From NCBI GenBank assembly GCA_010093605.1, contig MU004196.1, forward strand, positions 1,262,606 through 1,326,605: a stretch of 64,000 nt of DNA, in the 5' to 3' direction. The notes under the pieces are model-generated. The model had not been told where the DNA came from, did not search any database, and saw only the letters and a program-made list of their open reading frames with translations. Below are positions 19,616 to 62,704 of the stretch, piece after piece. Position numbers and translations under genes: made by a program. Position 1 is the stretch's first letter; each line of letters opens with the position of its first letter. This stretch comes from Lophium mytilinum. Its lineage: Eukaryota.

Positions 19616-20056
19616 ATGTCCACGCAAATTCCGCAAACGACACACCTGCAATTCTCGATAGAAGCAATACTTGGTATCATCTTTGGCATTCTCACGCTCA
19701 CCGCCACCGTTGCGAGCATCCGGTACAAAGATTCCATCTGCATTCTTGTGTTTCGCTTGTGTCGAAGACATCGCCGGCGGAGAGGTAGGTAGTTCAGACT
19801 CACATACAACAGCCGAAAGAAGCGCTCACCCATATTAGACATCGAAACCACCACTACGTCCGGGACAGAGAACTCACGAACTCTGCCTATCCGTGGGCTC
19901 TTCCTGGACTGGCCGTCGCCATACGACGCGAGCCAGATGGAGATGTGGGAGTGGGAGCGAGTGAGGAGGAGCGGGGTGGGGAGGAGGACCCTGGGGTGGG
20001 GAGAGGGTGAGGGCGGGGCTGCTGCATCATGTATGGAAAATGGATCGACGATATGA
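19616..20056 (+). CDS. TM microprotein family copy A, 128 aa (exons 19616-19784, 19839-20056)
   Basis: MSTQIPQTTHLQFSIEAILGIIFGILTLTATVASIRYKDSICILVFRLCRRHRRRR|DIE...FLDWPSPYDASQMEMWEWERVRR; phase-1 intron GTAGGT...TAG. Confidence 0.75.
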
Positions 20057-21297
20057 TCTTTACGGACCGATGACCGCTGCCTGCGATGCAGGTGTTACGA
20101 AGCACAGGTCCCCGCGAGTTGCAGCCTCGTGGCTTGAGCCGAGTCGGACCAGGCTGTAAAGGGTGGAGAGTGTCTGGGGTTGCGAGGCTGAAGGCTAACG
20201 GGGTTGACTAGCGGCTGGAATCTTGACAGCACTCGACTACTAACCTCTGGTGTGGCCAGTCGCTGTGGATCAGTCTTTATGCAGCTGCGGTATTGCGCTG
20301 CGAGTACTAGGGTGTGTGTGCATAGTGGCCGTGCGTGGTGGCGTGGGAAGCCTGAAATCTGGGGTTCATCGTCGAATCGGTTTTGGATGGGAAAACTACT
20401 GTGACAGGTCTCAGAGTTCATTGAGAGTGCCTATATCACCAGAAGTTGTGGGAGGCGATGGACGGAGAAAGCTCGGCCGATAGCTTGTGTTTGAACTAGG
20501 TGAAGCCGAGAGCTTATGGATACTTCAGATTTTAAGGTTAAGTGCTACTCGGCCATTATGTTATGCAAGAAGGAATGCCCAAAGAATGCGCGAAGAACTC
20601 GCGGGGACTTTGAGGGCGAATAAGCTCGGCTGAATCGGAATCAGGCTGAGCCAAGGTCGGTAGCAGGCTGAAGAATAAACGCGACCACTCGCTTACCAGC
20701 TCTCCAAACAGCACGCAGCTGACGTATCACTAATCAGTGGAGGTGTAGTCAGAGGGCTGATAAATGACATATCCAGGTTTGGCCGCTTTAATGCTTCATA
20801 ATGTCTATTCTTCATAAGCTTCTATCTTCACAGCCACTCTTGGAAGGGTTCCATTAAATATATGGATATAAGAACCTTGATAGACATCCGGTAGACGTAT
20901 CTCGGTGTCTATGTATACTCCAGTCACCTTTCGTTTGAGACAAAGGATCGCCATTTGCACTTGCGGATCATTTGGCGCCTGATAGCTTCCGAGGCCAATA
21001 AGATAGTTGCCAGGTACGTACTTCATCTTCGCTCATATTCTTTCTGGATAGTCATACCGTCACTCTCGCCGGAGAAAGGGCCCTAGTCCTTGCGATACAC
21101 TCACATTGGTTTCGAGACTCTTCTGATTTCCCCCTTTCCTTATTTTTCACAACTTTGCCGATGTTTACCTTTCTAACCATGTGCTTACAAGCTTAGGTAT
21201 AAAACTTATACCATTCTCGATACCAGCTAGCAGCACCTGTACCCTACTTCGAACCCATAAGCATTCAGGCCGATCCGACGTACCTCACTCGTTCATA

Positions 21298-21731
21298 ATG
21301 TCAGAGCCAAACTCGCAGCCACTCCATCCCCGCCTCTCCACCGAAGCAATCCTCGGCATCATATTCGGGATACTCACGATCGTGGCCCCCGTCGCCAGTA
21401 TCCGATGCAAAGATTCCATATGCGCTCGTCTCGGTCGCTTTTGTTGCCGGTCGCGTGGGCGGACGGGTACCAGTCACCTTTTTGCCAAGTCTTGGAGTCA
21501 ACCGCTTACCGAGAAACGATAGCTGGTGCGTGTGATCTGGGGACTGCGACTACTTCAGCACAGCGAGTGGCTTGTGGCGTGCCCGGTCGTAATACGCTGG
21601 AGTTGGGGTTTTGGCCTTGCCCGTTTGAAGCTTGTCAGATAGAGATGAGAGAGTGGGATCGAGCGAGGGAAAGTGGCAGTGTGGATGAGGTTAGAGGGCC
21701 GGCAAGGAGACGAAGCCAGACGATTCTTTGA
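21298..21731 (+). CDS. TM microprotein family copy B, 125 aa (exons 21298-21466, 21523-21731)
   Basis: MSEPNSQPLHPRLSTEAILGIIFGILTIVAPVASIRCKDSICARLGRFCCRSRGRT|AGACDLG...ELGFWPCPFEACQIEMREWDRAR; phase-1 intron with a weak donor (GTACCA). Confidence 0.65.
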
Positions 21732-23359
21732 GATGATTGCAATGGTTTAGAAGAAAGCGCTTGATTGGAATTTCTTTATACTCACCTACTACATGTACTG
21801 TACCCTAGATGATTAGATACCCATTTTTTACTCCCCTTTCGACTTCTAAGAGGTGTCTTCACGTTCAACAAAATGTTGCCCGTCCAAACATGCACCTAGC
21901 TATGTGCAACTCGGGAAGCGGTATGTAGCTAGGTGATGAGGCGGGATGAAGTCAGGATTAGCATCGGTCAGGGTCCCCTTTAGTCCCACTTCCCGGGGTT
22001 CCGAGATCGGCCGCCCGGCTTGGCAGAAGTCAAAGTCCACATCGCTCCTTGTTTCAACAGTCTTCATCTCTCGAATAACTAGTTCATCGTCTTCATCACA
22101 TCCTGCAATTTCTCCTTGCTCCACTCGAAGCCAGACAAGAATGGATATGCGAAAGCTCGAAATTTTCTTTGTTTGTTCATCAGTAATTCTATTCTACCCT
22201 GGATTGAAAATTCAGCCGCCCTCCCTCAAATCTAGATTTCCGCATCTATTCTCTTTAACCCGCCTCTTCGCCCAAAGTATACCCCCGCGAGGCTGAGATG
22301 GCACGTGCCTTTACCAGCGGATCGAAGCCGGATTGATGTTCAGCCTTGTGGTTCCAGCCTGGTGGCCCCAGCGTCTGCGGCATCACCGGCATCACCGTCA
22401 TCCGCATCTTCTCCGAAATTTCATCGCCAATCATGAGCTCAAGGTCACGTTTTTGGTCCAGAGTCACATCTATACCTCGAGCTTGCCACTCTAGAAACAG
22501 TCCAGGCGACGCGCTGTCTCTTCCCGGGTTTTGTGCTGTGGCTGCTGGCATGGAAGCTACCGCCTCAGCTACCGCGTCATCTTTCATCGCCGGCCCGCCG
22601 AGGGGTATCCCTGTACCTGTGAGTGGAACTACTACGCCACCTCTTCAACGGCCTTGCGGCACCATCCTCCACTAGCTGTCCGCTGGGAACGAGCTGGGTC
22701 TTACCGGTTGAAGCATTGACTAGGTAGTTCACGTGTTGCCCACTCTTTCCATGAGGCCGATCTGGATCCTCCAGATCACTTGTTAACATGGTTTGATGCA
22801 ATGCTCCGGTACGTACAGCTCCTCGCTTACGTGCAGCTGAAGGTGTAATACCAGCTTACGCATGCTTTGCTCCTGAACGGAGATGACGATCCCAAATACG
22901 TGGTGTTAATCACGGAGGAGCTCGGTGGCCGTTCTGTAGGCTGTTGATTGATACTGGATCGGCGATGCTATATCTTCTTGCACCCAGCGTCTTCGGCTGC
23001 TACATTTTAGCAGAAGCAGCTATTGCCCGGTGGAGCGAGCTGAAGCCACCGAACCCGCCTGGTAGAGCGCGATTTTCCAGCGGCACCCATGCAGCGGGGT
23101 GCTGCTCGTCGGGGAGTCCGCAGCCACCGGGGGTGCACGACCTAACAAAACGCTCGGGAGGAGGCCGGCACCCTCTCCTTGAATTGTGCATGGCTGGGAC
23201 TAGGAAGCGAATCCTACAGGCACCGACCCACTGACCAGTCGCACTCCCGGGAGAAATGCTGCTAATTAAGGTGCTAGAGCTCAGTCTAATCGCCAGCATG
23301 ATGCTCAGATGGTATACTTGTATGGTCCTATTCTCCCCGCACTTTACACTCTGCGTGAG

Positions 23360-23640
23360 CGTGATCTCTGGCTTGTTATCAGCAATCACGACTCCATACC
23401 TAGGAGCTCTGTCCGATCGATACGGCCGCAAGAAACTCCTCATAGTAACGACGTTAGGCATGCTCGTTGGAGAGGTCATTACCATATTCACGGCCAGCTT
23501 CCCGTATACTATCAACGTGAATCGGATTCTCCTAGGACAGGCCTTTGATGGCCTGTGTGGCTCCTTCATTATCGGCATGGCGGTGGCACGCTCTTAGGCC
23601 ACTGACTGCACTCCTCCTCGATCAAGGAACGTTGCATCGG
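23360..23640 (+). pseudogene. MFS transporter fragment (DHA/tetracycline-efflux-like, N-terminal helices)
   Basis: MFS motif A, GALSDRYGRK, and DGLCGSF. An in-frame TAG (23595-23597) precedes ATDCTPPRSRNVA. The rest of the gene is absent. Confidence 0.75.
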
Positions 23641-23976
23641 TGAGGCGCAAGCTCTTCTCCTGTCACTATCGTACTACTCTAGTATTTGTGTCGCCTGTAC
23701 GGTATTCTCTATTGTCTTATCGTTTGTATCATTCATCTATACTATACCTCACAACTCGTCAGGGAACAGTCCGTTCACACATCATTCTCACCAGCCTTGA
23801 GATGCAGATGCAAATTTGCGAAGCCATCTCATCAACTTGCCCTTGGTTAGTGCTCCCGAATCTCACATCTTCTAGTTGTGGGACAACGCTGCATACTATC
23901 AACCTAACCCTGCCCGATATTCACGTCTCATCCATTCTCTTCCAAATTGCCTAGAGAACCACCGTGCGCTATAGGC

Positions 23977-24060
23977 TTCGAGCCAGTGGCGGACATTATC
24001 TTCAAAATGCTGACGCTCGCGGCGACGGTTGCAAGCATTCGATTGCAAGACTCGGTGAAC
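23977..24060 (+). pseudogene. TM microprotein family copy C, decayed exon-1 remnant
   Basis: FEPVADIIFKMLTLAATVASIRLQDSV aligns to EAILGIIFGILTLTATVASIRYKDSI. No ATG, no poly-Arg/intron junction and no exon 2 found. Confidence 0.65.
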
Positions 24061-25154
24061 CACCAACGAACTATTGGACATGGAGTTTTCAACCAGAATA
24101 TGGGGTACGGGCTCACATGTGTGGCGCCTATACAAGTTAGCACGAAGGTGAGAATAAGTAAATGTGTATTTAGCCAAGCAACACCCCGCCATACATACAA
24201 TAAGCGAAAGTGATCCCACTTCATACTTTTCAACGACTGGCAAGATGGGAAGCTTCACCATCAGAAATATCGGCTGCTTGCTTGAGCCCCTCCTGCAAAC
24301 GATGCTAGATGCATCCTCTTACAGACGCTGCTGGGTGCATCATCCTGCAGACACCGCTAGGCGCATGAGGTAGGGCTTCCCAAGCGTTGGGCCACAGCCC
24401 ATTGCGAGAGCTACGTAAGGAAAATGTTTCGGCTCAGGGGTTGTGCAATCTTCGAGGGCAAAACTTGTACCGGCGAGGAACAACCCAAAGCGTCGGATCG
24501 CAGCCGACCGCGAGAGCTGCACAAGGGAAGGGAATCGGCTCAGGGCTTGTGCACAGCCCTCCTGCAGGCGTCGCTAGGTGCATGAGGGAGGGCTCCCAGA
24601 AGAGCCGTTAATTGGCTATTGCGCGACCCCTGCTGTCATGATGCCGCCCCGACTTCCTACATAATGTGAATTGACGCTTTCTTCCAAAGTATATATTCGC
24701 TGGTCCATCACTACAAGTCTCCCTCCCCGAAAGCTACGCACCAATCCACCCCGCCCCCAAACATTTGACTGGTATGTACTTTAGTTCAGCAACCGTTATG
24801 TGCGTACAGCATCAAACGATCTATTGATCGTACTGACGGTTGAACGCTTCTGTCACTCTCTTACTAGCCTTAAGCTTTCACTGGAAACATAGATTCCAGC
24901 CTCGAAATTTAGTCTTTCATATACACTTGAACTAGGTTACTAAAAGTCGCAGGTCAAACGCTCATTATCAGCCTTCTCTTACGCCACGCCACTGAGAACA
25001 CATCCCAATCTTGGTACTCGTCATTACTCCCGCGCAACTCCGCCCGTAGGTACTAGGAGCTGCTCTCAATCGATAGCTGACGTTGGTTCGTGAAGCCTAA
25101 CTTACGCCAGCCAAGTACCCCTTTCTCTCAGTCAGGGTTACCACATGCCTCGCG

Positions 25155-25613
25155 ATGCTGGAACATAGTCGACCTCATCTCCATATCTCGGCCGAAGCAA
25201 TCATAGGAGTCGTTTTCGGGATTCTTACCCTAACCGCTACGCTTGCCAGTATCCAGTTTAAAGACTCGATAGTCCGTCTTTGCTGCACTCCCCGTCGGTT
25301 AAGAGGTATTCTCCCTTACATATGCCCCTTTTGAGCAGTAATTGAAAACTTTCAAGCTTCCAACGATGTCGAGGCAAATGCTGGTACTACCTTGGCAGCA
25401 TGGCCCACAAGATCTATTCCGCTTCCGCATTCACTCGAGCTGTATACATTACCGTCGATACGTTTGCATTGGCCGTCGCCATACGAAATCTCTGGGGCGC
25501 AAATTGGAGAGTGGGATCGTGTATGGAGAGGTGGGAGCGTGGAGGAGATTACTCAGCGGATTGGCCCGTTTTCGGGAGTGATGCGGTTGCTTGGGGTCGC
25601 CCATGAGCAGTGA
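25155..25613 (+). CDS. TM microprotein family copy D, ~135 aa (exons 25155-25305, 25357-25613)
   Basis: MLEHSRPHLHISAEAIIGVVFGILTLTATLASIQFKDSIVRLCCTPRRLR|ASNDVEANA...LELYTLPSIRLHWPSPYEISGAQIGEWDRVWR. The acceptor (AAG) is uncertain. Confidence 0.65.
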
Positions 25614-26739
25614 AAGTGTGCAGAGCACGTCAGGGGGAAAATTATGGTATCTAAGAAAACGACGTTTGGTATGAAGGTGTTGTCGATTCTCTTTTCTTGA
25701 TCCTGCTGCTTAGATCTTGAGGAGTGGCTGGACAAGGCTGAGAGTTCGATAACCTTTGTAAAAAGAGGCTCGGTTCGTGGAATGAAACTTCGAATCCGCA
25801 ATACATGAGAACAGAACGAAATTGTGTGCGATTTTAGACTAGATGAACGGTTCCTGGCCTAGATTTAAAAGGTTTTCCGATATGGAAGTCTAGAAGGCCT
25901 GATAAGATCCCACCATGTTGACGAGGGGGTACCCTGCGACGATCAACTAGCCTCCTCCAATGGCGGCCCTTACACGTACCGTAAGCTCGTCAGCTTCACT
26001 TTTTGAAAGGATGATTGGCGGATATTGCACCGTCCGCCTCACCCTTCCTCAGCTCCCCCTCTCCCTAGCCTAGATGCCCCGTGTATACGCGGGGGCCTGA
26101 GCCAGGAGCCTTGGACAGTTCCGCTTTAGCGATCCCCACCTACATGATAGTTCGTAGGGAATGATACCATGTCATAGACTCCTTGGTCTCGTCCCTCTGG
26201 ACTATGACTGCGAAGATTTTGTAGCTATCGCTGAATCTACTGCCTGTCTATAAGGTTCAGCGTAGCCATGGCCGCGAATGCGCCGTAACGAGAGGCCGAC
26301 TTTAAAGAGAGTACGAACTCGGACGCGGCGGTTCCTCAGGCAAGCATTTTGCAAGACTGCCTTATGAGGAGGCAGAGCACCACTTGTCACTAAAGAGATT
26401 CAATCTTTGCTACGTGATATTAGGAAAGAGCTCAGCATTTCGTAGCTCATAAGACTGTGCCGTCATTGAGGACACTGTTCCAAAGCTCAGGAGACGATGC
26501 CGCTTTTTCAAGTCAACCAGCACTGCAAGCTACGTCTTCGGAAGGTGCGCGAAGCCGCAAGGCTCCAAACAGTCCTCCCAGTCACCGGGAACTGCATCCT
26601 GCATCGCCCCCGAAAACACCGGCATAACGCACTCTAAGCTACGTGTCTTCGAGCACTAGCCTAATTCTCGAGGGAACGCCCATACATCGGGGGGCCTGTC
26701 AGGCCCCAAAGCTGCGGGATCTTTTGCAGGGTGGGCGGC

Positions 26740-26892
26740 TCTAGGGGATCACAGGATGGTCTGGGCAGAGGTGAGGCCATGCAAGCGGGCAGGTCTACGG
26801 AATCGTAGGATGGTCCGGGCAGACGTAGGGCCATGCAAGCGGATAGCTCTACGAGATCGCAGGATGGTCTGGGCAGAGGTGAGGCCATGCAA
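26740..26892. repeat. 54-bp minisatellite, ~2.7 copies
   Basis: AGGATGGTC(T/C)GGGCAGA...GCCATGCAA recurs at 26753, 26807 and 26861. Confidence 0.85.
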
Positions 26893-27728
26893 TGATCCCT
26901 AACGGTGATCTTACAGTTGCGTTTTGTCTCTCAAGTCAGTGCTTTTAAGAGCGCTCTGGTTGTCTTCGTCTTGCAGTGTTAATCCGGTGAATCCACGGTC
27001 TCCAAAACTTTGATGCAGCGCATTTAATATTGCACAAAGAGGCAGATCCTTCGACTTCAACTCCTTCCGAAGCAGCACGAAGCCTTTTAAAAGCCCCACT
27101 GGTACGTCACCCGCTCGTTCCTTTGATCTCTCGCCAGTATTTACGACCGCTGGTGTTCTTCTCCATCCAATCCGTTGGCGCGGTCGCAAATGTTGATGAG
27201 GGTAGCGCACAGCTACTTCGACATAAGTGATTCCATTCGACTTGCTAATCTTGAACTGTAGCAACCTTCATCTTCAAGTTGCCCATCGGCACGCCTGATC
27301 GCAGTACCACACCGCAGGCCACGCGACCAGCTACCCGTACGTCGCCAACTCCGAGAATTCGCCTTCAGCGTCGTCAAACCCAAAGATTGACTCAGCCTTC
27401 GGCGCTGACGAATCGAGTCGGATCTCGAACCATCTCCTTACTCCTTCGCACACTCCAACACAAGACAGCTTCCTTAACACCAACTTTAGCACCTATTCGC
27501 AAGGCCCAAGCATGGACTCCATTTTGACCAATCATACCTACTAATTCAGATCTGGGTACGTACCTCGGCACTGTCCAGCCTATGATGTCCAACCACAAAC
27601 CATTCTACTCTCTCGTGCACCGACTGATATATGCAATTCGACAGAACCTACCGTTTCGTCCACTTGATCGTAAAACTAACTTTTTATCTACCCAGAAGCT
27701 CCGATATCAGTACCACACGCCTCCCGCA

Positions 27729-28147
27729 ATGCCTGAGCACGAGAGATCCCATTATCACATCTCCACCGAAGCAATCGTGGGCATTGTCTTCGGCATCCTC
27801 ACTATTGGCGTTACTCTCGCTAGTATCCGATATCAAGACACCAACCTTTTTGCACTTCTGTTTCGCATCTGTCGAGGCTCTCGTCGGCGAAGAGGTGTGC
27901 AGCTACCATGTCACCTACCTTATATCAATATAGTGCGCTAATATGAGACGGTTTAGCCTTATTCAGAGACTCGATTGAGCTTCAAACTCTATCCACCTTT
28001 CTGGATTGGCCCATCGTACCATCACCATACGATGTCGGAGATTTAGAGCGGAATGAATGGGAAGATGAGCGAAGGGGTACGAGAGAGGAAGAACATACCT
28101 GGCGGGACACACTAGTGAGGAACGGGATACGTTTGACCGAGCGATGA
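27729..28147 (+). CDS. TM microprotein family copy E, 118 aa (exons 27729-27894, 27957-28147)
   Basis: MPEHERSHYHISTEAIVGIVFGILTIGVTLASIRYQDTNLFALLFRICRGSRRRR|ALFRDSIELQTLSTFLDWPIVPSPYDVGDLERNEWEDERRG; intron GTGTGC...GCTAAT...TAG. Confidence 0.75.
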
Positions 28148-29221
28148 AAACCGTGTTTATGAGACAGATCTACAGGTGTGGATAGGAATCACAGAGGACG
28201 CAGTTACGAAACTTTAGTGTGAGAAATTAGCTATCGTCCTCGGATTTGGATACCAAGAGAGCTTAGGGTTCGAGGCGGCGAGATTTGGTCTGGCTGGAAA
28301 TGGGTACCGACTCTTAACCGACCTGCTACCCAAAGACGATACCCTTCAAATATATATTCATCGTTCATGACCTGCCTGATCATCGTCAATTTCACATGGA
28401 TGTGATGCACGAAATCCTCGTTGCTGCGTCATCTCTGGTCTTGTACCACATGCCTATTCCGGACGCAATCCCCTCTCAGCCTTCAAAACTACGACGTTAC
28501 AGAAACGGTTGCGGCGCCGCCGCGGCACACATCGTTCAGGTCAGGGGCACAGATTTTGGGGTAAGAAGAAGAGGAAACGTGTTGTTTTAGGGTCCCTAGC
28601 CTTGTGGGTGGGGTACGGCGGGGAGTCCTATCCCGAAGCAGCTAAGCAGCCCCAGCAAGGCTGGAAAGCTCCGGCCCGTACCGCACCAATCCGCACTCGC
28701 TAACGCCCGGGCGGGTAGAGCGAAGTGGGGTCTTATCGTGGTCCACATCCCTTCCAGAAGTCGTTTCCTTGCCGCTTACCATGGGGTCGGGAGAGTGACC
28801 CGAAACTCGGGGGTCATTTCAATGCCGGCTGATTTATGAGAACGGCAAATCAGGTCTAGCACCCGAGCGACGCGATTGAAAACAGCCCGAGGTCGTGGGA
28901 TTTCAAGAGCTGAGTACTATCGCCACTCTAGTTTCATCCCTTTGGATTGTCAATGTAATCTCTGCCTGATATGACTTTGTATAAAACGATTTTGTTGCCT
29001 AACTTTCAGTGTCGGGCATGGCTTTTTGTATTCACTGTTTTGAATCATCATATCTCTGAATCTCTAGTGCTATCAACCTTTAGAATTTCTTGTGTCGGGC
29101 CGTTTATCTAATCCTCCAACCTGTGAGACGACTTTGTAACTTCGAAGATTCGTGACATTGAACCCCTAGAGTTTGCCACTTGGACAGTTCTTCCGCAAAA
29201 GCGCTTCTTTCTGTTTCAGCC

Positions 29222-29560
29222 ATGGCAACAAACACAACTCACCTCTCCACTGAAGCCACACTGGGCCTCGTTCTTGGTGTCCTAACTATCATGGCCACGC
29301 TTGCGAGTATCCGGTACAAAGCTTCTATCTGTAACGTCGTAGTCCGCATTTGCTGTAATGATTGGTGTCGCGGAGGTGCGTACATATATTCTGCGGCTCT
29401 ACTATTTCAGAAACATCGGACATAGAGGCTACAAATGTTATTAGAGGATGTCTCGCCCCCGTGCTAGAGCTTCAAAGGAGTCATTCCACGTTGCTGGATT
29501 AGCGTACCGTCGCCGAATATTGTCGGTGAGACTGAACGGATGGCCTGGGCGGATGAAGGG
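29222..29560 (+). pseudogene. TM microprotein family copy F, premature stop plus frameshift in the conserved motif
   Basis: MATNTTHLSTEATLGLVLGVLTIMATLASIRYKASIC...|ETSDIEA...ELQRSHSTLLD* (TAG 29500-29502 where paralogs have TGG). VPSPNIVGETERMAW follows in another frame. The intron is only 35 nt (29376-29410). Confidence 0.75.
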
Positions 29561-30700
29561 AGTAGTTTGAACGTGGAACAAGGGGTCGATACCATACCAA
29601 CACTGCATATGTAGCCGAGAGTAGGCGTTGACTGAAAGTGATTGGAGGAGTGCTAATAGGTGGTATTAAACTATGTCTGGTTGAAGGATTGAATCGGTAA
29701 TTCTATAGGGAGTTTGCGCGCATTTGGTGGGGAGCAATAACAACAAGTGCAACCTCCTACGGTGTTCGATGTAGATTTCTTTCCAGAGTGCAGTGCGTGA
29801 TAGCCCATCTACACTACCAAGGGATGTATTAGCGTTCATTTCCACGTGCACCCCTAGCACCTCCATCCTTATACTGTACGGCGTGCTTCACGGAATGGCT
29901 CGTCGTATATCTGCATACATGTAGCTGGTGAACTGTCGCAGTACAGTTCAATATTGATGGGGCTGTGAATGTTTTATATACGCTCGTGCTCTGGAATACG
30001 CCGGAGTGATAACCTCTCGTTGTAGGGCTCGTGCGCAACAACACCCAGCACTCCGAACCACCTCCAAACCTTGATAAATAAGCTCACAAAGTATCTTGGG
30101 ATATAGCTCTAACTTCGCGCTTTAGGACCGTTTTGAAATAATTTCGAATATCGAGGCTGGGGGTGTTGTATTCAAGTCTTAACGTTGGCGTGGGAGCTGC
30201 CTTAAAAGCGGAGGTTATGTTATTACTCCGACGTAGAGTCTTGCCGTGAAAATGTTCCGAACCCTGAGTTGCCAGGTGCTAGCCCAGCCCTAAGTGGTGA
30301 ATAACGAATCACGTAGCTCCATTTCGTGTCGAGTTCGCTTAGAAAAACCGAGCACGTGACAGCCAGGCCGATCTTCCGCATCCCATGTCGTCAAGATCAC
30401 TCAGTCTAAGCCTCACTGGCCAATAACGAATCAAGTAGCTCCATTCATATGGTGCATACCTAGCGCGGACAGAAAACGCCTCTCTTTGTTTCATTGCAAA
30501 GTATGTACACCTCCACGCTTCAAGTCTACGTTCGCCTACAGCGGATCTTCAATTCCTCTTTGCGATTGTGGATTTCTATCGCTATTGCTAGCTTGATTCT
30601 CTGAACCCGATTGGATTTCGTCTGCTTTAATTCGCACGTCTTCATAACCTTAACAGCCAGCTTAGCCTCAAAACCAGAAAGAGAGAACGAGACTTCAACC

Positions 30701-31254
30701 ATGAAGGCCGATACCATTCTCGCAGCAGCATTTGGCGCTTTGACTTTACTAGCAACAATAGCTGGCGTTCGTTACAAAAGCTCTATTTGCGGTTTAGTGC
30801 TTAAGTTCTTCAGATGTGGCCGCCGTCGTCGAGGTTAGTGGACGTCTTCTGATGTGAGCGCCAGCGCGGGGGTGCCATCGCGGTGCGACTTTGTGTGAGC
30901 AACATATGAATCTACGACCTCTCGCATTTCTCTTGCTAGCTCGTCTGTTGTGGGCGACAAGAGTCCGTTGGGAATGATGAGAGCGGGTCACGTGATACCA
31001 AAACCACACGTCCAGTCTGGAGCGAGGGACAGGTCACATGATACAGAACTGATCCATGTTTAGATCCCCGAAGCATTCAGGACGTCGAGTCTACCTCTCC
31101 CGAACTGTCATCAAACCAGAACTCGCATTCCACTGGCATCGAGTTGCTCAATCTGCCTCCTGTTCAGCATCCGATGTACCTCGACTGGCCGGTTCTTCCC
31201 TCCCCGTACGACGAGACTCGTCGCGAGCAGCATGAGTGGAGCACGTTGGCTTAA
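30701..31254 (+). CDS. TM microprotein family copy G, 107 aa (exons 30701-30833, 31064-31254)
   Basis: MKADTILAAAFGALTLLATIAGVRYKSSICGLVLKFFRCGRRRR|DPRSIQDVES...GIELLNLPPVQHPMYLDWPVLPSPYDETRREQHEWSTLA; 230-nt intron GTTAGT...CTGAT...TAG. Confidence 0.75.
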
Positions 31255-32255
31255 CCCATCACCCGAGAGATGGAGGATTAGTGGTGATGGCTGGACAGAA
31301 AGCCATTGGCGTTGCAGAGCTGAATGGGTGCTTGGATACAGTGCTTGAGCGTTCGGCGGCCAGGCGCTTTCCAGGATTCGTTAAGGAATATTGTTTCTAC
31401 TCGGGGTTCGCTTTGTTCTTCCAAAAAGCTGTCTTTCTAGATTCTCGGCGCGACCTCGAAAGGTTGCGCCTTCTGTGTCATCTGTCTCTACGCCGATTTC
31501 GAAGATATCAGTCATTGAGAACATCAAGACTCACAATACCATTTCCCCGACACTCATCCGCTATTTTGCGCAAGGGCGAGGCTTTCGCTGCTGCCAACGG
31601 CAGGGTGCTGATGAGTAGGCCTACTGCAAAGGCTGATCAAGGGGCAAGCCAATTACGGTAAAGACGGCGATGGATGAGCGTTGGGAGTAAAAACACGTTT
31701 ATTTTACATTTCACACCTGGATGCTTGTTGGGCCATTTGCATGTTGCGGTTAGCGGGTACTGTAGTTCGATCTCATACTTATCAAACAGGATAGACAAAG
31801 TCTTGAAGTGGAGATTTTATCTTGCGTTCAGCCGCACCGGCTAACTCCGGAATCCAGCCTCGCACGTGATCCACGTACCATTCCGCCCTATTCAGGCACT
31901 GTGGGAGTCGTCAAACCGTGGCAGTCTTGTTAGGTTAAACTTTCTTTCATAGAAATGAGGGAACTGGGTGGTGAAAGTCGGCTGGTGTTACGCATACATA
32001 TATCGTAGCCACGCCATAATGGCCTGTGCTTACACGGCAGTGCGATTACCCGGTCACGCAGTATGCAGCTAAGGCTTTTGAAGAGGCTCTTGTAACCAAT
32101 GATGGCTAACGAAGAGGCCCCACGTCTAAGTTTCATCGCAGGGATCAACAGCCCCTCATCGGTCAGCTCATTCAGCCTTGCATGAACGACCTGGCATTGC
32201 TGAGAACCTCATCGAACCCTTCCCCTCTTAAGGGAACATGCAGCTCACGGCTCTG

Positions 32256-34711
32256 ATGGCGGGCGGGTTCGGGTTCTCTATTTCCGATCTTGCCGCCATT
32301 GGCACCTTTGCGTGGAATCTCTACAAGTCTTGTAAGTCGAGTGTCGCTCTTGGATCTACATGACTTCGCGAGACATGAACTGACCGCGTCAAGGCAAAAA
32401 TGCAGGCTCCGAGTTTCAGGTAGTCACTGGTGATGGTAGAAATAGATCCTATCTTGCAACAAGAAGATACTAATTTCACGACAGTCAACACGCTGCAAAC
32501 CGCTCTCCGCGAGCTCAACGACGAAGTGGGAAACCACTCTTCAATCTTCAACCATGGACACGAAAAGTGAAAACAAGATCTAACCGTCCTAGTAAAGGAC
32601 TGCGACACCGACCTCCGGACACTGGAAAGACTTCTCACCAAGTACGGCTCTCTGAAATCAAGCAACCCGCGGACACGTGACAAAATGGGCTTCAGCCCCA
32701 CGAAGGTGCACGAAATACGCGTCAAACTCTCCAAGCATACGGAGAAGCTCAATTTCTTCCTTACGCAGATGAATACCAGCGCCCTTGGCAGGATGGAGAC
32801 AAAGCTCGACATGTTAAGAGAAGACATCCTTCGAGGATGGAAGAAAACAAGCATGTTTGGCATCGCTGAGGACTTGACAATGCTGGAGAAAGAGTTGCTA
32901 GATGATGAGATTACGGAGGTCGATGTTGAACTGAATAGAGGGCCGATTATGGAATGGCTTCGGCCAACCCGTGAGGCTGAGCACTTCTTGGATATACCTC
33001 CCGTTGATCTTCGTACTCCGGATCCGCCTATTGTGATGGAATCGCCGATCAAGATGTCCCCATGTCCCTCGGTCGTCTTCGGTACAAAGGAAACGTCGAA
33101 GAACTACCAGGCGACCGTCGATGATGGTAGCGATGACGGGGAGGCTTACGTAGCGAAAGATCTGCATCCTGCAGAAGCAGTCCACACGGAGACGTTCAAG
33201 CAGAGTGCTCACATTGTAGAGAACCCACCTACCAATGGCTTACAAGACGAAAATGAAAAACTCGATGCTGGGCGGAAAACGTCACTAGCTTCCTCCGTAA
33301 TCGACGAGAGCACTTTTGATAAGACTAGCGATCCAACCCGTGTACTGGAAGAATTCTTCAACTTACCTCGCTCGGAACCTCGACAACCGGATCCGCCAAC
33401 TCGACCGGCTGAAAAGCAGACCAATGGAACTCCTTCAGAAGGCAATAGATCTCCTCCGGCTTTAGCTACTAGAAAGACCTAGACTAGGAAGCCTAGCCTC
33501 CAAAGCATGAAAGCCGAAATAGAGAGTCTTGAGGCCGAACGACAGCCCGACACGGCAAAAGATTATCCCTCACCAGGAGACGAAACTGACTACAGTGACT
33601 ACAACCAGTTTTGCCTAATGACAGCCTTTGCAGAGATTGAAAGAAGAAGAAATATAAAGGTTACAGAAGGAAGCTTCGAGGAGAATAAACTATTTTTGGG
33701 CAGACAGATGATTCCATCCTCACGTTTCAATACTACAACCTTTTTCGTTTCTCCTTCGGGTTTGACCTACTTGAATAAACTACCGTGCGATAATCTGGAT
33801 CCTCTGCTCAAGGGCTACACAGATCCATCCCCAGATAACAGGCCTTTTCCGAGTACTATCTGGTTGCGTGGCGACAAGCCTTGGAGTGTTGGTCGGCCTT
33901 CATACCCTTTGAATCCAGCACATCCGTTCCACAAACTTACTCCTCCGCCTACGTCCTCTCTCCTCCATCAGTACAGTCAACAGAGCCAGCGTCGCCCCCG
34001 AGGCCAGTAAGCTCGACCCCGTCTCCTCCGCCACTTCAGACGCCAGAGCCAACAACGCACCCATTGCACGATGCTCCTACTCCAAACGAAGAACCCCCAT
34101 CCGAACCAACGAATGCTTCTCCATCTCCTCCACCATCAAACCCCGCTGCGCCTCTGCCACAGCAACCAATCGTTCCAGAGCCAGAGTCGGCCACAGAGCC
34201 GGCCACAGAGCCGGCCAACGCACCCCAAGTCATAGAACGGCGGCTCCGCTGCACGCTGGAGGAACTCTTCTACGGCACCACCAAGAAGGTGCGAAGCAAA
34301 CGCAAAACTTCCGGTGAATTGGGCGAGAAGATGTCAAAGGATGGTAAGACATGCGCGATACCCATAGCACGAGGACTTAAAGACGGCGATCGGATCAAAT
34401 TTACTGGCGTCTTTGAGAACGATATAACGGAACTTCATTTTGTCATAGAACAAGTGCGTACCTTTCTTCACACAACTTGATCTGCCCTAATTGCCATGTC
34501 CCTGCAGGAACCCCATCGGCTGTTTAGCCGGAGAGGAGACGATTTATATTATAAGCCTCAAATCTTTAGTACAATGGTCAAGACTATCGATGGGGTGCGA
34601 TTCCAAGGACTGTTTGGCAAGAAAAATAAGTTTTTCCCGGGCTATGGTATGCCGAAAAGCGAGAATCCGGAGCAGAGAGGGGTTTTCTACGTGAACATGA
34701 TTAGAAAGTGA
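32256..34711 (+). pseudogene. HeLo-like/STAND N-terminal domain fused to a DnaJ C-terminal (peptide-binding) domain, disrupted
   Basis: N-terminus MAGGFGFSISDLAAIGTFAWNLYKSC|KNAGSEFQ...LNFFLTQMNTSALGRMETKLD. C-terminus CTLEELFYGTTKK..GLKDGDRIKF..LHFVIEQ|EPHRLFSRRGDDLY..GYGMPKS..RG. In-frame TGA at 32568, TAG at 33480, frame change at ~33880-34010. No HPD J-domain. Confidence 0.7.
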
Positions 34712-35668
34712 GATTCTTGGAGATACAAGTATATGTCCTAATTTTTACTCTTTCATGTATAATTAGTAAACCCATAAACGCTCGAGTTTAAACGCTGAGG
34801 ATTGCCTTCAGCTGCATAATTTGCTAGCTGGTGTAGTTTGAGACAAGAAATACCCTTGCGGCAATCAGTATCACGTGATCCTCTTTGCCCAGGGCTCGCG
34901 CGTTGCGAGGCATGTCGGAGAAAACAGCGTCCGGTTTCGCGTACAACGACTTAACCTCCTCGAAATACTCTGATATTTTACCACTATCTTGAAAACGCTA
35001 TCTTTCAAGAAAAGGACGGGTAAAATGATATTACAAGATTGCTCTTCTTGATCTACTGTCATGGAACTGGAAAGTGGGATAATCCGCCAGCACAGCCACA
35101 CTCCATGCGCGCGCAACCTCCGCAGAGTGCCTCGCAACGCTGAGGCAGAGTCGCAGAAAGCATAGCCCAAAGTGACTCCTTTTAGCAAGAATTAAAATCG
35201 GTCAAAAATCGACTTTATTTTCTGGCCCACCAACGCCTTTATAAGTACTCAGATCTCGCCGACCTTCTATCCAGGTTTGCAATTCAAGCAGTGTTTACTT
35301 CTCGTGGTGTTCGCCTTCACCTCTCCTCAGTTTTGCGACCGTGCCTTCACGCCAATCCTTGCTAGTCTGTGACAGCCTGCCAGCCAATAGGACACCACCA
35401 AGGCGAGTACTCAATTTGAGGCTTCTCTTCGCAGTTTCTGTAGTCTCTTACATACTTGCTGAAGATCTTTCTTATATCAAACCTCATAGGCCAGGACTTT
35501 CGATATAACGAATGGCTTGGGAGACCGCGTTCCCCGGATGGCATCCACAGGACTAATACTTGATGTAGGGGCCACTAAACTCTTAGTACGACTCCTTCGG
35601 AGAGCTGTGAATATCGAATTCGAAAACAAAAAAGTACCTTTACGTCTTTATCCGCAGTCCACAGCTCC

Positions 35669-36059
35669 ATGTCAGACCAACACCCCTCCGCTTCCCATCT
35701 TTCAACCGAAGCCATCTTCGGCCTCATCTTCGGCATCCTCACCCTCACGGCTACAATCGCGAGCATCCGTTACAAGGACTCGATATGCATGCTTTTCTTG
35801 AGGTGTTGTCGCCGGGCTCGTTCCCGAAGGGGTCAGCGCTCTATAGAACATAGAAACTCTTTTCGATCTCAGCTAATGCAACGTAGGAGGAGCGGACCTC
35901 GAGGCTGGCAACGATAGACGAAGTCCGGCTACAGGGGGTGTATTTGAGCTCCAGAGAAGCAGATCGACGTTCCTGGACTGGCCTGTGGTGCCTTCACCGT
36001 ACGATGTTGGCCGGATGGAGAGGCTTGAGTGGGAGAGGGAGAGGCGCGGCGAGGCCTGA
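35669..36059 (+). CDS. TM microprotein family copy H, 111 aa (exons 35669-35831, 35887-36059)
   Basis: MSDQHPSASHLSTEAIFGLIFGILTLTATIASIRYKDSICMLFLRCCRRARSRR|GGADLEAG...FELQRSRSTFLDWPVVPSPYDVGRMERLEWERERRGEA; intron GTCAGC...GCTAAT...TAG. Confidence 0.8.
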
Positions 36060-37172
36060 TACAAGATGGGGGTGGAGAAATCATGCACGGAAGGCTTCTC
36101 GCGTCCTTCTGGAATAGGATAAATGTTGTTCTACGGCGGAGTCTCGGAGTAGAAAGTTGGAGTTTAAGGTGGTAAACACCTAGCATAGCGTCAGGAGCGC
36201 CAGCCCATGTACTTTAGTCGACGTCTCTTCTTATGTTCGCGAAACCCCAGTATTCACCTAGCGCATGTGTCACAGGTCTTCTGCCGGTTTGCTTGACATA
36301 GTTGGCTGCTGGGGATGTTGACCTCCGAGTCTTGTAAGGCTGAGCGTGGGATTCGCTCTGGTAGGAGGCCACGAGGCCCAAGGACACGGTGCGCAGATTT
36401 CTAGTGTACATAAGCAGACTTCCTGTGATTTCTGTCACACTGCAAGCTGTGGTGGATTGAGTGAAAGCAAGTCGCTTTGCACTGCTGGGGTGCTGCCCCA
36501 CGCCGGTCTTCCGCGTCGCCAAGTACTGAGTGTCCAATGACGATGGGCTCTGTGGCGTCTCGCACCGCCCTGGCGCTGGCTAGCCCGCAAGTAAAACGCA
36601 GAGAAATAGTGACGGCGGCGTCATTGCAGCAGGCCTCTCCGGCTGGTACTAGTATGATTGACTGCTGCAGTAGCAACATACGTGCTACCCGACTGACAGC
36701 ATGGGCTGCTCCACTGGTACATGGGCTGCTGCCCGCTCCGGCGCCCACAACATGGGGCACTGTACGCTCCCGCTCGGGGCCTGACACACCTATCAGCGCT
36801 CCAAAGCGGCGGGACTGCGGTGATAATGCGCCCACTGTCCCTTTGCTAATCGGTCCGCTTGGGCGAGGCGGCAGAGAGTGATAATGACACGCTGGAACAG
36901 CCCCCCTAGGCTGTTCCCTCCATGAAGTCGGTGCTACGCTTTTAGCATGGCGATATTCCTTATAATTCGCATTCGTCCGCCCAGTCCGAAAATTGAAAAG
37001 ATATAGGGCCATTTGTTTACGATCACTTAGGGATCGACCACTGATTTTCAATACCACCTAAATCCGGCGCTTTTTCAGGACTGCGACAAGCATTGCACGG
37101 TCGCAGAGCGGAAATCCATACTCGCGATCTCCTTACGTAGGTCTGTTACAGGCCCTCGTCGCGATTACGGAA

Positions 37173-37606
37173 ATGAAACTCGATACTATCCTTGCGATAG
37201 GGTCTGGCGCTGTCACTGTTCTTCAAGTTATGGTTGCGTTGATTAGAGCTGTGGTGGTACTGGTCCGTCGGCGGAGAAGATCTGAAGGTGTGTTTGCCCT
37301 CGGGTTACTTCTAGACTTTCTTTTGCAACGCCCTCTGGTGAACGGCAGATTCCGTCCCTAATCTTCTTCAATACTAATAGGAGATCTCTAGACCAAGAAC
37401 GCAACGGCGGATCTGAGTCGGCGTCGGGCCCCTTCTCGAATCACGCGGGCACTTTATACCAGTCGTCTGGTATAGAGCTGTATCCTTTCGTACCAGCTCA
37501 ACATCAATCACTGAGCGATTGGCCCGTTCTCCCATCTCCATTCGAAGAGAGTAGTCGCGAGCAGCGCGAGTGGGGCACGCTCTGTCGAGAGTGGTGCACA
37601 GCATAA
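37173..37606 (+). CDS. TM microprotein family copy I, 109 aa (exons 37173-37287, 37392-37606)
   Basis: MKLDTILAIGSGAVTVLQVMVALIRAVVVLVRRRRRSE|DQERNG...GIELYPFVPAQHQSLSDWPVLPSPFEESSREQREWGTL; most similar to copy G. Confidence 0.7.
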
Positions 37607-38963
37607 CGGCAACAAGGGTTGATTGAAGCTTGCTACGATTCTGATAAGCAACTTCTTGATTGAAGCTCCGGATGATAGTGTGGCACGTGGATAGCTTCAA
37701 GAAAACGGAGGACTGCAGAGAAAAGCTTTACATAGCGGGATGGTTAGATCAGGCGAGCGGTTTCTATTGGGCGATTCCACGGTCTTTGACCCTAGCATTG
37801 GATCGACTGGTTCGAGGATGAATGTCAGCTAATACCTTTTCAAGGCGAATTTAGACAATTAAGAAGACATGCTTGCCGAATACCTTCTAGGCTAAGAATA
37901 AATATTCAGACCAGTTTGTTTTTGTGCGAAACAGACAGCTGTCGTTTTCAGCATCATCATCGAAATCACAATTGTTCTACTTCTTGCGATCGTTTTTTTG
38001 AATTCGAAGAAGGACACTTTCCCACGTTCGCCCGAAGAATCTTGGGTACACCGGCTACCGTAAGGTTATGACCGCGCTCGCATACTGGCGAGCGGTTTGC
38101 TGTAGGCGGCTTGTGGGAATGGAGCTCCGCAACAACCACATTCGGCCTCTCTCTGCTGAGATAGCAGAGCAGTGCTTAGGCGGAGTCTGACCTGTTGGTC
38201 TTACCTGCGTCAAACTTATGGAACACGGCATAGTAAACCAGGCGAAATCATTAATTCTGGTAATTTAAGACGAGCAGGAGCAGGGAGCGGCGGAGCGTAG
38301 AGAAGAGCAAAATGCGGCATCTCGAAAATAACGCTTGCGAACCTTTCGGTAGATGGCACCCTGAACACTTGGGTGCGGGGCGGGTGGGATGCTACGCGAC
38401 GAACACTGAGGTGTTTGGCAGCGCACCACAAGAAAGCCACGTCATAACATCCACCCTCAAGCCTCTAGTATGGAATGTTCGGTATACGCGAATAAATCGT
38501 AGTCAGCTGCGGACAGAATACTGAAGGCTGCGGAATCTACGGCACGTAGCTTCTTCCTTAATGCGATTCTTCGATTGGAGCCAAACTGCAGCACAGATCT
38601 CGGACGCGCGCGCAGGCGAGGGATGCCTTTGCCTGGCAGTGAGCGCGAAGTTACCCGCACCGGAGCCTAGGCATGGGCGCCAGCTGGACGGGCGAGCAGA
38701 CATCACGTGCCGCGGCGGAGCGCCGGAGCGCCATGCTGAAAAAGCGGCGGGCGGGCATGACTAGACGCTAGCGACGCGCTCTCTTTTCAAGCCGTCGTGC
38801 CTGTATTGTAGGCTTGTCGCAACGACAGAGCAGCGCGCGTGCAAATAGCTGGAGTTGTGAGCGATGCGCTCTCTTTTTCCGCTGTCATACCAGCTATGCG
38901 TATCGCCGTCCTCGCGCCCAGACCGCCCTGGCGACGGGCCGGATCATGACCTGGCTGCGTCGC

Positions 38964-39029
38964 CAGGTCAAATTGACTGACACTGCTGGTCAAATTGACT
39001 GACACTGCAGGTCAAATTGACTGACACTG
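38964..39029. repeat. 22-bp tandem repeat x3 containing the palindrome GTCAA-A-TTGAC
   Basis: C(A/T)GGTCAAATTGACTGACACTG at 38964, 38986 and 39008. Confidence 0.9.
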
Positions 39030-39244
39030 ACCATGACCGCCCTCCTCATGTCAAGTGCAAAGCTCTTAAAGCGACCCCTTTCCGCATGGATTGGAATATG
39101 GTGTCATCCAAATTATTCATTCCACGAAGGTTCCCGTCAGTCAATATTTCCCTAGTGAGGCGTTTTCTATATACCTCGTGGCTCACTCCATTGTCTCAAC
39201 GATTGAAGGAGGCTGGTAGTCCGAGAAAAACGTCAAAAGACACT

Positions 39245-39626
39245 ATGGCTCGTGAAGCAGTGTTGGCGATCCTTTTTGGGGTTTTGACATTACTTGTAAC
39301 CGCAGCCGGGATCAAATGCAAACACTCGATATGCTGCTGCCTGCTCGGCATGATTCGAAGAAGACGCCGGATGCAAAGTAAGTCAGCTCCTTCTTTTCTT
39401 CTTTCTTTCCCTGGCTCTTCCACACGGCATAGCAAAAACACGGGTATGCTGCGCCACACAAGGCTGACCAATCGTAGGAGGAGATGGGGACTTTGAAGGA
39501 GCCCAGCCCCCACGCACCGAGTACGTGGAGTACTTCCATCGACCTATGGCAACGTCGCCATTCGAACTCAGTCGAACGGAGCAACTGGAGTGGCAGCGGG
39601 AGAGAGATCGGGATGAGGGAGTGTGA
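39245..39626 (+). CDS. TM microprotein family copy J, 93 aa (exons 39245-39377, 39478-39626)
   Basis: MAREAVLAILFGVLTLLVTAAGIKCKHSICCCLLGMIRRRRRMQ|RGDGDFEG...FHRPMATSPFELSRTEQLEWQRERDRDEGV; consensus intron GTAAGT...GCTGAC...TAG. Confidence 0.75.
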
Positions 39627-39983
39627 GGATACTTATGTTAGATAGAGCGTGATATGCACTGGGGAGGTTACTGCGGACTGTACTCTGGTGCCGGATGACG
39701 ATGCTGGCCCCCTAGGACGTACTTAATCATTTTGACGTGTTACGGAGGACTCAGGGATGAAAATGTAGCCTGGAGAGTGATGGGAAGAAAATGTGGACAA
39801 GGCTGAGGTTGATGTTGGCTTTTGGGGCTAGGCCGGATAGATGCTAGTGTAGTAGACTATAGTAGTTTAGTTTCCCGTCTAACTCTGCGGCCTCAGCCTT
39901 TCTGCCCTCCTGCACTCAACATCAACTGTCATACTTTGAAACATGAGATAGGACGACATCCGGGCTTCCGAGCCACCGTGGAA

Positions 39984-46101: not shown

Positions 46102-47269
46102 ATCAGGACATCTACCTTAGTATTTTAGAAGGAAGGCTCAGACGTTACGGATGCATGTAGTCTTCTATATACAGTTTCATCTTCCCCCTAACTTAATCTT
46201 CTCCCTGGTGTCCTCATCATCTTCATCACATATAGCACGTCAAACGCTTCTGTTTTGTTGCTAAATGACATTTCCTTCAACTAAATACCAAATCATGCTA
46301 ATGAGGGCTGTGATGTCTTTTGGCGATGATTATGTGGAGGAGTTTAACTCGCCGCGACAACGTTCAGAATCCATTGATTCGGAGTGCGCGTGGAGGATAT
46401 GCGCAATGCCATCACGATATTCTTATCTCGAATATCTGGATCTAAAATCTGGCCACTCGCACGGAAAAGAGTGAGCAAATGAACACAGATGCCCGAGACG
46501 CTGACGTGAATTAGAAGCCGGCACTCTGCTATCGAATGTCGTCGGTATAATCATGCCTCGCAATATATCTCCCTTCTCCAGCTTTGCAGGCACTCCAAAC
46601 CAGTTAGAAGCCTATCGTTGCCGTTATACGAGCGCGATCAGTATGGGCTAATCTTCCCCGCAGCCAGCTACTCTATGTAACAAGCCGCTTGTTGAACGCC
46701 TCGATACCAAACATAGGCGGGTTTTGTGATTTACTCGCCGGTTCGCGAAGAATTCGGGAGCTATTCCGGAACTACGAGGTTACAGCGAATGTCACGGAAT
46801 AAGGAGCTGTAGGCCGTGTACGTAATGTATTAGATGATGATGAAGTAGGAGAGAAGAGGTCTAGAAGAATGCGAGGCTATATACAAGGTTGCATTGCACG
46901 TGCTTGCTGTAGCCCTCCCTGATAACGAACATCTGAACTCTGCATACAACCCGAAGGACATCATACCGGGAATCAAACTCTTCTTTGATGGAACGAAGGA
47001 ATGGTCTCTGGGGCACTCCTTACAGTGGTGTCGAGCGAACAAGAGTGGGGCTGGGATAGTCGGATGGCTATTTGTGGTGGTTTAGGATGTCGGAGAGTAC
47101 ATTAGCTGACGGGTGAGTATGATATGGGGAGGAGAATCAGAACAGGGACGAGCACGCGGTGTCGGTGGAGAAGACCTGGGAGAGTGAGAGTGATGGGGTG
47201 GCGGCAGTGATGGAACTGGACTGGAGCGATTTGGATTGGAGCCGGATGAAGGCCCCGAAATAAAGCATT

Positions 47270-62600: not shown

Positions 62601-62704
62601 AAACTATAACCTTTTAAGAGCTTCTAGCTCTCTTTCTCCTCCTTAGCTTAGATTTTTATAATAGTTAATATACCTTATTACTTATATTATATTAGCCCCC
62701 TATA
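53657..62704 (+). mobile_element. Ty3/Gypsy LTR retrotransposon 2 (nested, structurally complete, RIPped)
   Basis: LTRs 53657-53876 and 62485-62704 (220 bp). 5-bp TSD TTAGG at 53652-53656 and 62705-62709. Polypurine tract AAAGGGGGGGG at 62471. RT AYIDNVLIY near 59207. Confidence 0.92.
55559..56903 (-). mobile_element. Tc1/mariner DNA transposon (RIPped) inserted in the gag region of element 2
   Basis: TA duplication (55557-58, 56904-05) and imperfect ~27-bp TIRs TAGT......ATAAAAGTATAT.CTAA. The minus strand de-RIPs to FMQDNAPIH and WPPYSPDLNPIEHVW. The empty site is seen in element 1 near 50605. Confidence 0.88.

Follow-up and report, generated by a model that had tools for sequence, protein, structure and literature searches.

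The window analysed here, a 64,000-nucleotide (nt) stretch of contig MU004196.1 of the filamentous ascomycete Lophium mytilinum, contains a tandem array of ten paralogous genes that all lie on one strand (+) and span positions 19616–39626. They belong to a family of very small, single-pass membrane proteins of 80–135 amino acids (aa). The array almost certainly represents a real, expressed gene family, and its copies are under purifying selection on the protein. We found three properties that had not been noticed in a first-pass annotation of the same DNA: the tail of the proteins is nearly free of lysine and rich in arginine, the membrane helix is their best conserved part, and the intron is common to the array and to Pleosporales-type relatives. 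The first-pass annotation read the array as an adaptor or receptor-like repertoire, and on the sequence features described below this is a tentative interpretation.

The extent of the array was determined with an exon-1 profile (A1) built from nine exon-1 peptides and scanned against all six frames of the window, stop to stop. The scan returned exactly 10 segments, all on the + strand and between 19.5 and 39.5 kb, with E-values of 8e-30 to 3e-6, and the next match had an E-value of 1.3. The weakest segment was the third copy (c3; copies are numbered c1 to c10 by position), which was recovered despite its absence from the profile. Translation at positions 19616, 21298, ~23977, 25155, 27729, 29222, 30701, 35669, 37173 and 39245 gave the same N-terminal module at every one of the ten starts, so that the number, strand and starts of the paralogs had been called correctly before. 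The exon-2 profile (A2) gave 8 strong segments in the window (E ≤ 1e-13) and also picked up c6 as two weak pieces in two different frames. Blastn self-comparison of positions 19000–40500 yielded 12 non-self matches, nine from coding core to coding core and three between short local spacer repeats; as described earlier, no match joined the spacers or introns of different copies. The five short introns shared 56% identity, against 51 ± 5% when shuffled (10 pairs). DNA likeness between copies is therefore confined to the coding cores.

Of the ten copies, eight are intact; a frame break truncates c6, and only a relic remains of c3. Introns were found by seeking GT..AG pairs that put the conserved tail in frame. 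A phase-1 intron directly after the Cys/Arg stretch is present in the eight intact copies and in c6, thus in all nine tail-bearing copies, which agrees with the common intron position proposed before. The introns measure 54, 56, 51, 62, 35 (c6), 230, 55, 104 and 100 nt in copy order (c3 left aside), and the spliced products of the intact copies have 128, 125, 135, 118, 107, 111, 109 and 93 aa, matching the clean products of 93–135 aa predicted for eight copies. A branch-like CTNAY, the branch-site consensus, is located 15–25 nt before the acceptor in 7/8 intact copies; c4 has no good one, yet it is seen spliced.

Copy c1 (19616–20056) consists of exon 1 (19616–19784), the intron (19785–19838) and exon 2 (19839–20056). 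Copy c2 (21298–21731) has an intact frame with a predicted intron at 21467–21522, which has a weak donor (GTACCA), and its tail motif is degraded (FWPCPFE). An annotated protein of Mytilinidion resinicola (P0001) is colinear with the c2 product across the junction (67% identity, 118 aa) and thereby gives independent support for the c2 model. Copy c3 (23938–24057) is a relic of exon 1 with the start codon not in place, FG changed to FK and no exon 2; apart from the profile hidden Markov model match (E 3e-6), tblastn aligned c1, c2, c4, c5 and c8 onto it with E-values of 2e-8 to 8e-6, and c7 more weakly (E 0.002). Copy c4 (25155–25613) comprises exon 1 (25155–25305), the intron (25306–25356) and exon 2 (25357–25613). 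Copy c5 (27729–28147) has its intron at 27895–27956. Copy c6 (29222–29614), with a predicted intron at 29376–29410, yields an 81-aa product, as its frame stops at a TAG (29500–29502) where the W codon of LDW belongs; a residual tail (..VPSPN..E..AW..) runs on in another frame to 29614, and an intact relative (P0006) aligns across the break. Copies c7 (30701–31254, intron 30834–31063) and c8 (35669–36059, predicted intron 35832–35886 with branch CTAAT) are intact. Copy c9 (37173–37606, predicted intron 37288–37391) is intact and divergent: the juxtamembrane RYKDSIC is gone and no cysteine follows the helix. Its exons match the profiles with E 3e-10 (exon 1) and 1e-22 (exon 2), and its exon 2 DNA is 80% identical to that of c7 over 64 nt. 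Copy c10 (39245–39626) has a predicted intron at 39378–39477 that starts with GTAAGT. In-frame ATGs occur upstream of the used starts in c5 (by 147 nt, 27582–27728) and c10 (by 159 nt, 39086–39244); the shorter forms are favoured because they agree with the other copies and, for c10, with the public model.

In the 20-kb stretch, contigs assembled from one public run (X1) show 11 joints. Each has GT..AG or CT..AC ends, the pattern expected of spliced transcripts. The c1 intron coincides exactly with a joint that skips 54 nt (GT..AG, shorter side 119 letters), and so does the c5 intron with one that skips 62 nt (GT..AG), although its shorter side has just 28 letters; the c4 intron was set by a joint that skips 51 nt (GT..AG, side 255). 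Two copies carry an additional spliced intron in the 5' untranslated region (UTR). In c2 it lies at 21014–21196 (+, 183 nt, GTACGT..TAG; joint 21011>21195, cut +2, shorter side 25 letters) and in c4 at 24772–24952 (+, 181 nt, GTATGT..CAG; joint 24770>24952, cut +1, side 255); a single 2006-letter contig spans both the 5' UTR intron and the coding intron of c4. The earlier description as two-exon genes therefore holds for the coding exons, while c2 and c4 have three-exon transcripts. Joints support a 5' UTR intron in c2 and c4 only, as a pattern scan over the copies was inconsistent. Three CT..AC joints (27912>28097, 27937>28099 and 28211>28312, with 26, 30 and 113 letters on the shorter side) point to a spliced transcript from the minus strand, running across the 3' part of c5 and the DNA immediately beyond it.

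The RNA nature of run X1 is a guess. Mapping of the predicted junctions, as advised with the first-pass annotation, succeeded for c1, c4 and c5, but the X1 contigs show no joint for the c2 coding intron or the c9 intron, and the listed contigs over c8 (35686–36625) and c10 (38431–39649) are unspliced. Contig depth there is low and even (3.7–9.9), spacers included, and these contigs may be unspliced RNA or DNA carry-over. No promoter words were shared among the 500 nt upstream of nine copies beyond what random window segments share. The contig cover misses 28988–31655, and is thus uninformative on the expression of c6 and c7.

Selection on the protein had been proposed from the contrast between coding cores and spacers, and several measures bear it out. 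In the helix core (26 codons, 8 copies, 28 pairs, c3 and c9 excluded) identity amounts to 0.68 at the first codon position, 0.83 at the second and 0.36 at the third. For the eight spliced coding sequences, the Nei–Gojobori proportion of synonymous differences (pS) is 0.64–0.90, i.e. saturated, and that of nonsynonymous differences (pN) is 0.24–0.55, somewhat lowered by an alignment built on protein; pN is smaller than pS in 28/28 pairs. The ratio of the corresponding rates (dN/dS) is 0.12–0.33 in the 11 pairs that allowed dS to be calculated. In a tree of 27 proteins, which excludes c3 and c6, c2 and c4 each group with a different M. resinicola protein (support 98/91 and 100/98). The duplications therefore predate the split of the two genera.

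The family appears to be undescribed: it is unnamed and lacks a Pfam model, and our literature searches found no paper on it. The absence of a named family had been noted before, and indeed Pfam returned no family at threshold for 14 exon peptides (searched at E ≤ 10) and 16 full-length family proteins (E ≤ 1), and a profile search of the PDB gave 0 matches at E ≤ 1. The sole recurring weak Pfam match over the helix region is CYYR1 (PF10873), likewise a single-pass family, with 12–16 bits (E 0.017–0.22); membership was rejected, since the gathering cut-off is 31. A feature-based protein atlas search gave unnamed Ascomycota clusters only and no usable named match. A literature search found no paper with the motif strings or the locus-tag prefix, and the 10 listed of 29 papers naming L. 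mytilinum and M. resinicola concern taxonomy or genome surveys, judged by title and abstract. The array is only partly hidden, however, and the first-pass annotation overstated this when it called the genes easily missed. The c4, c7 and c10 products are present letter for letter in the public protein set as P0002, P0005 and P0004; P0002 is named a hypothetical protein of L. mytilinum and P0005 is hypothetical protein BU16DRAFT_566069 of the same species. The exon-1 profile matched 31 of 1.84 billion representative proteins at E ≤ 1e-3, nine of them at E ≤ 1e-10; this library is clustered at 50% identity, so that the absence of c1, c2, c5, c8 and c9 from it says nothing about their annotation.

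All named relatives are Dothideomycetes. L. mytilinum has a further copy (P0011) on another scaffold, and M. resinicola has three family proteins, of which the two that pair with c2 and c4 come from equal-length contigs. Pleosporales gave one match per species in at least eleven genera, in searches that were non-exhaustive. The Pleosporales-type proteins contain the helix, a juxtamembrane HYRDSLCC and then D[VI]E, [IV]ELQP and P.Y[LYF]D, and are without the WP..PSPY..E..EW extension; the tree separates them from the Mytilinidiaceae-type (96/94). Four metagenome loci carry Pleosporales-type genes. In two of these, L002 and L004, the homologous position holds a phase-1 intron of 49 nt, which suggests that the ancestor of the family already had this intron. 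In a third locus, L001, the family gene (4839–5198) is uninterrupted and the shared intron is lost.

Each protein starts with an N-tail of 4–16 residues that is neutral or acidic, followed by the conserved membrane helix (..FGxLT[LI]..T.A[SG][IV]), a second, arginine-rich helix with cysteines, a disordered, acidic tail with the short motifs D[ILV]E, [IL]EL and [YF]LDWP..PSP[YF][DE], and a short C-terminal helix (..E..EW). Motif counts in the intact copies are 6/8 for D[ILVFM]E, 7/8 for SP[YF][DE] and 7/8 for E..[EAV]W. An AlphaFold2 model from 17 sequences places helices at residues 2–24, 26–42 and 92–106 and leaves 43–91 unstructured, with a mean predicted local distance difference test score (pLDDT) of 69.8; helix 2–24 has a pLDDT of about 90 and helix 92–106 lies over SPYD..E..EW. 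Conservation across two orders is highest in the membrane helix and the residues that directly follow, with F, G, A and S invariant in 17 sequences, and most array copies have a G/AxxxG pattern before the invariant FG. An Atg8-type W..[LIV] motif was rejected as a family feature, being present in 6/8 array copies yet only 2/21 Pleosporales-type members.

The best 19-residue hydrophobic window begins at residue 5–17 in the eight array proteins. Their N-tails have a charge of -1 to +1, amino terminus counted, and the 25 residues after the helix one of +2 to +8. The C-side is more positive in 8/8 array copies and in 38/47 family rows (one of the 47, P0043, is doubtful). Basic flanks stay cytosolic according to the charge-difference rule, and since the C-flank is basic and the N-tail neutral or acidic, an N-out/C-in topology (type III signal anchor) is predicted, with the Cys/Arg helix on the inner face. 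We consider this topology likely. At least one cysteine lies within 20 residues after the helix in 7/8 array copies and 41/47 family rows. The signal-anchor proposal of the first-pass annotation, including possible palmitoylation, thus agrees with the charge pattern and the cysteines, the orientation itself remaining a prediction. N-tail sequons (NxS/T) occur in 14/47 family rows, within a few residues of the helix. N-glycosylation there was set aside, because sequons so near the helix are too close for the glycosyltransferase by the distance rule.

The most unusual property is the composition of the tail, taken here from eight residues past the helix to the end. The tails of the eight array proteins contain one lysine and 94 arginines in 616 residues, where 31 lysines would be expected from the 8 other open reading frames of the window (lysine 5.0%, arginine 7.0%). 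The 94 arginines use all six codons, 34 of them AGA/AGG, and base composition is therefore no explanation for the missing lysine. The five other Mytilinidiaceae-type members have one lysine in 401 residues. Pleosporales-type proteins with a complete tail (n = 19) have three lysines and 104 arginines in 1480 residues, and 17/19 have no lysine at all. In 36 other family rows, mis-spliced models included, 18 lysines were found against 117 expected and 26 rows had none; two of these 38 other rows were skipped as the anchor was not found. Such a family-wide lack of tail lysine fits an adaptor that escapes ubiquitination.

The reading that we favour, though tentatively, is that the proteins are N-out/C-in anchored adaptors with a ubiquitin-resistant tail, possibly acting with Rsp5-type ligases. 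The proteins would insert N-out/C-in, with the Cys/Arg helix on the cytosolic face and perhaps palmitoylated. The conserved membrane helix would recognise a partner inside the membrane; its conservation across two orders argues for a specific membrane partner rather than a mere anchor function. The lysine-free tail would recruit cytosolic machinery while itself escaping ubiquitination, and being disordered, motif-keeping and lysine-excluding it resembles a docking platform that has to stay free of ubiquitin. By analogy with yeast Rcr1, the best guess for the recruited machinery would be the ubiquitin and sorting system of the Rsp5/HulA type, and the ten diverged copies would form a repertoire of such adaptors. 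A link of the array proteins to the ubiquitin system is doubtful in itself. It would be a long shot to see in them a new class of ubiquitin-proof adaptors, whose helix picks clients and whose tail brings an Rsp5/HulA ligase or sorting coats, with the Mytilinidiaceae array as a tandem repertoire of about ten specificities.

Several points weigh against this adaptor reading. A canonical PY motif ([LP]PxY) was found in 0/8 array copies and 0/5 other Mytilinidiaceae-type members, compared with 10/21 Pleosporales-type members (≥ 95 aa). The exomer/sorting motif LxYYD of Rcr1 was found in 0/8 array and 0/21 Pleosporales-type proteins, and the Pfam searches described above gave no match to RCR. Topology, palmitoylation and binding partners of the array proteins are all predicted, the cytosolic location of the tail from charge alone. 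Lysine deserts are enriched in ubiquitin-proteasome components, and most pronounced ones sit in plasma-membrane or extracellular proteins, as stated in the published survey (PMC10169902). Because deserts are so frequent at the plasma membrane and outside the cell, lysine avoidance alone indicates neither the ubiquitin system nor a cytosolic tail. The modest probability that we give to a ubiquitin-resistant adaptor reflects the missing PY motif in the array, the missing LxYYD and this distribution of deserts.

Alternatively, the proteins could serve a membrane enzyme or transporter as micro-subunits or regulators that act mainly via the helix, the tail tuning stability or location. Such regulators include yeast Pmp1/Pmp2, which act on the proton pump, and proteins of the phospholamban/sarcolipin type. 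This would fit the conservation of the helix and following residues over two orders, the identity of 0.83 at codon position 2, the four invariant residues and the G/AxxxG pattern. Still, we find it unlikely, since selection has long preserved the tail motifs too, the window contains no partner gene linked to the array, and Pmp1/Pmp2 and phospholamban-type proteins are far shorter and without such tails.

Another possibility is secretion: the hydrophobic stretch would be removed as a signal peptide (..VAS|IR..), the arginine run would serve as a dibasic site of the Kex2 type, and the acidic C-terminal peptide would be set free outside the cell. Small residues do close the hydrophobic stretch, RR or RRRR follows within about 20 residues, and the lysine-desert survey describes deserts as common in extracellular proteins (PMC10169902). 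Yet the flanks, neutral or acidic on the N-side and strongly basic on the C-side, are the reverse of a signal peptide, and the hydrophobic stretch, which is no shorter than 19 residues, shows the highest conservation. Signal peptides have a positive n-region and a short h-region and usually evolve fast. Furthermore, the tail is without conserved cysteine pairs and predicted to be unstructured, and the Pleosporales-type members lack the arginine run. It is therefore very unlikely that these are small secreted proteins.

An even less probable reading is that the proteins belong to the membrane of peroxisomes or another organelle and are inserted by Pex19, the basic cluster beside the helix being the targeting signal. 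In 3/3 metagenome loci with enough upstream DNA, a Pex19 gene lies 3.0–3.3 kb upstream of the family gene on the same strand (L001 863–1801, L002 1–867 and L004 2191–3126). However, the three loci are from related fungi, so plain synteny is possible, other open reading frames lie between Pex19 and the family gene, and there is no Pex19 gene near the array in the window. Lastly, a decaying, functionless cluster in a fast-changing region, to which the c3 relic, the frame break of c6, the degraded tail motif of c2 and the neighbouring transporter fragment, HET genes and AT-rich block described below would point, is largely refuted by eight frames that stayed open despite synonymous saturation, by pN < pS in 28/28 pairs, by orthologs retained in another genus and by three copies spliced in transcript-like contigs.

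Genes for a kinase, PPR, cwf18 and R3H/SUZ proteins occupy 0–17 kb of the window, ahead of the array. Past the array, at 40–46 kb, two heterokaryon incompatibility (HET)-domain genes (39984–41678 and 44356–46098, +) follow directly on c10, the first one beginning ~360 nt after its stop. Across the last 17 kb (47000–64000) the GC content falls from ~50% to 27–31%. This block looks like a repeat block mutated by repeat-induced point mutation (RIP). Between c2 and c3, a 113-aa open frame (23256–23597, +) matches the first part only of a major facilitator superfamily (MFS) profile (MFS_1, E 3.6e-9) and is probably an MFS gene fragment. Between c7 and c8 there is a gene (32238–34711, +) whose matches to the DnaJ C-terminal domain are weak (E 2.7e-6 and 3.2e-4), with three introns visible as contig joints (32331>32394, 32434>32484 and 34453>34508). 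Two spacer stretches (27297–27521 and 35074–35182) match contigs of very high depth (1028 and 859), with 4 and 1 differences, and these contigs continue into unlike sequence on both sides. Six-frame translation of the two stretches gave no clear reading; they probably derive from sequence located elsewhere in the genome that is either repeated or strongly expressed. Short, local direct repeats occur in the spacers at 24379–24553 (75% identity), 26738–26892 (94%) and 30289–30445 (86%), and the second of these underlies overlapping open reading frames that repeat the peptide PLPRPSCD. In the metagenome locus L004, a ubiquitin-conjugating enzyme fragment lies upstream of Pex19.

Very small membrane proteins are under-studied in fungi, and this family has been kept across at least two orders of the Dothideomycetes, a class rich in plant pathogens. 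The avoidance of lysine throughout a disordered tail gives the family a distinct signature that can be tested, and the ten-copy array, set against the single matches in Pleosporales, offers a natural system for adaptor diversification. Should the function prove mundane, what stands is a lineage-specific family of hypothetical proteins that is partly annotated already.

Among known systems, the array proteins can be compared with the Comm/PRRG4 class of small single-pass PY-motif adaptors of Nedd4/Rsp5 ligases and with Rcr1/Rcr2. Like these, they are small and have one helix near the N-terminus and a longer, here predicted, cytosolic tail of short linear motifs. Rcr proteins are about twice as long as the family members. 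One study describes Rcr1 and Rcr2 as small single-pass Rsp5 adaptors of yeast, in which the cytosolic lysines of Rcr2 are needed for ubiquitin-dependent vacuolar sorting, a K-to-R form of Rcr2 goes to the plasma membrane and lysines added to Rcr1 direct it to the vacuole (PMC7401822). Paralogs that diverged in sorting, with the lysine content of the tail deciding their own fate, are both features of the Rcr pair that the array would share. The family also has a Y-[YLF]-D element (PLYYD, PLYLD, PMYLD) that resembles the LxYYD of Rcr1 without matching it. Unlike Rcr proteins, those of the array match neither Pfam RCR nor [LP]PxY nor LxYYD. Membership in the Rcr class thus fails by sequence and by the PY test, and the likeness is one of architecture only. 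With the lysine deserts of ubiquitin-proteasome components the family has in common a conserved, disordered, lysine-free stretch in which arginine replaces lysine. Its stretches are short, however, just about 70–100 residues in very short proteins, and the ubiquitin link would here be an inferred one; the length-ranked desert screen overlooks proteins as short as these by its own statement (PMC10169902).

A third comparison, by description only, is with the transmembrane adaptors of immune cells (LAT, PAG, NTAL and LIME), which combine a very short stub on the outside with a single helix, cysteines next to the membrane (palmitoylated in LAT) and a disordered tail bearing tyrosine-based motifs. 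To our knowledge, fungi are essentially without the phosphotyrosine/SH2 system that the animal LAT-type adaptors use, so the architecture is alike and no homology is expected. As a repertoire, the ten copies could be likened to the arrestin-like adaptors, of which they would be a single-helix counterpart.

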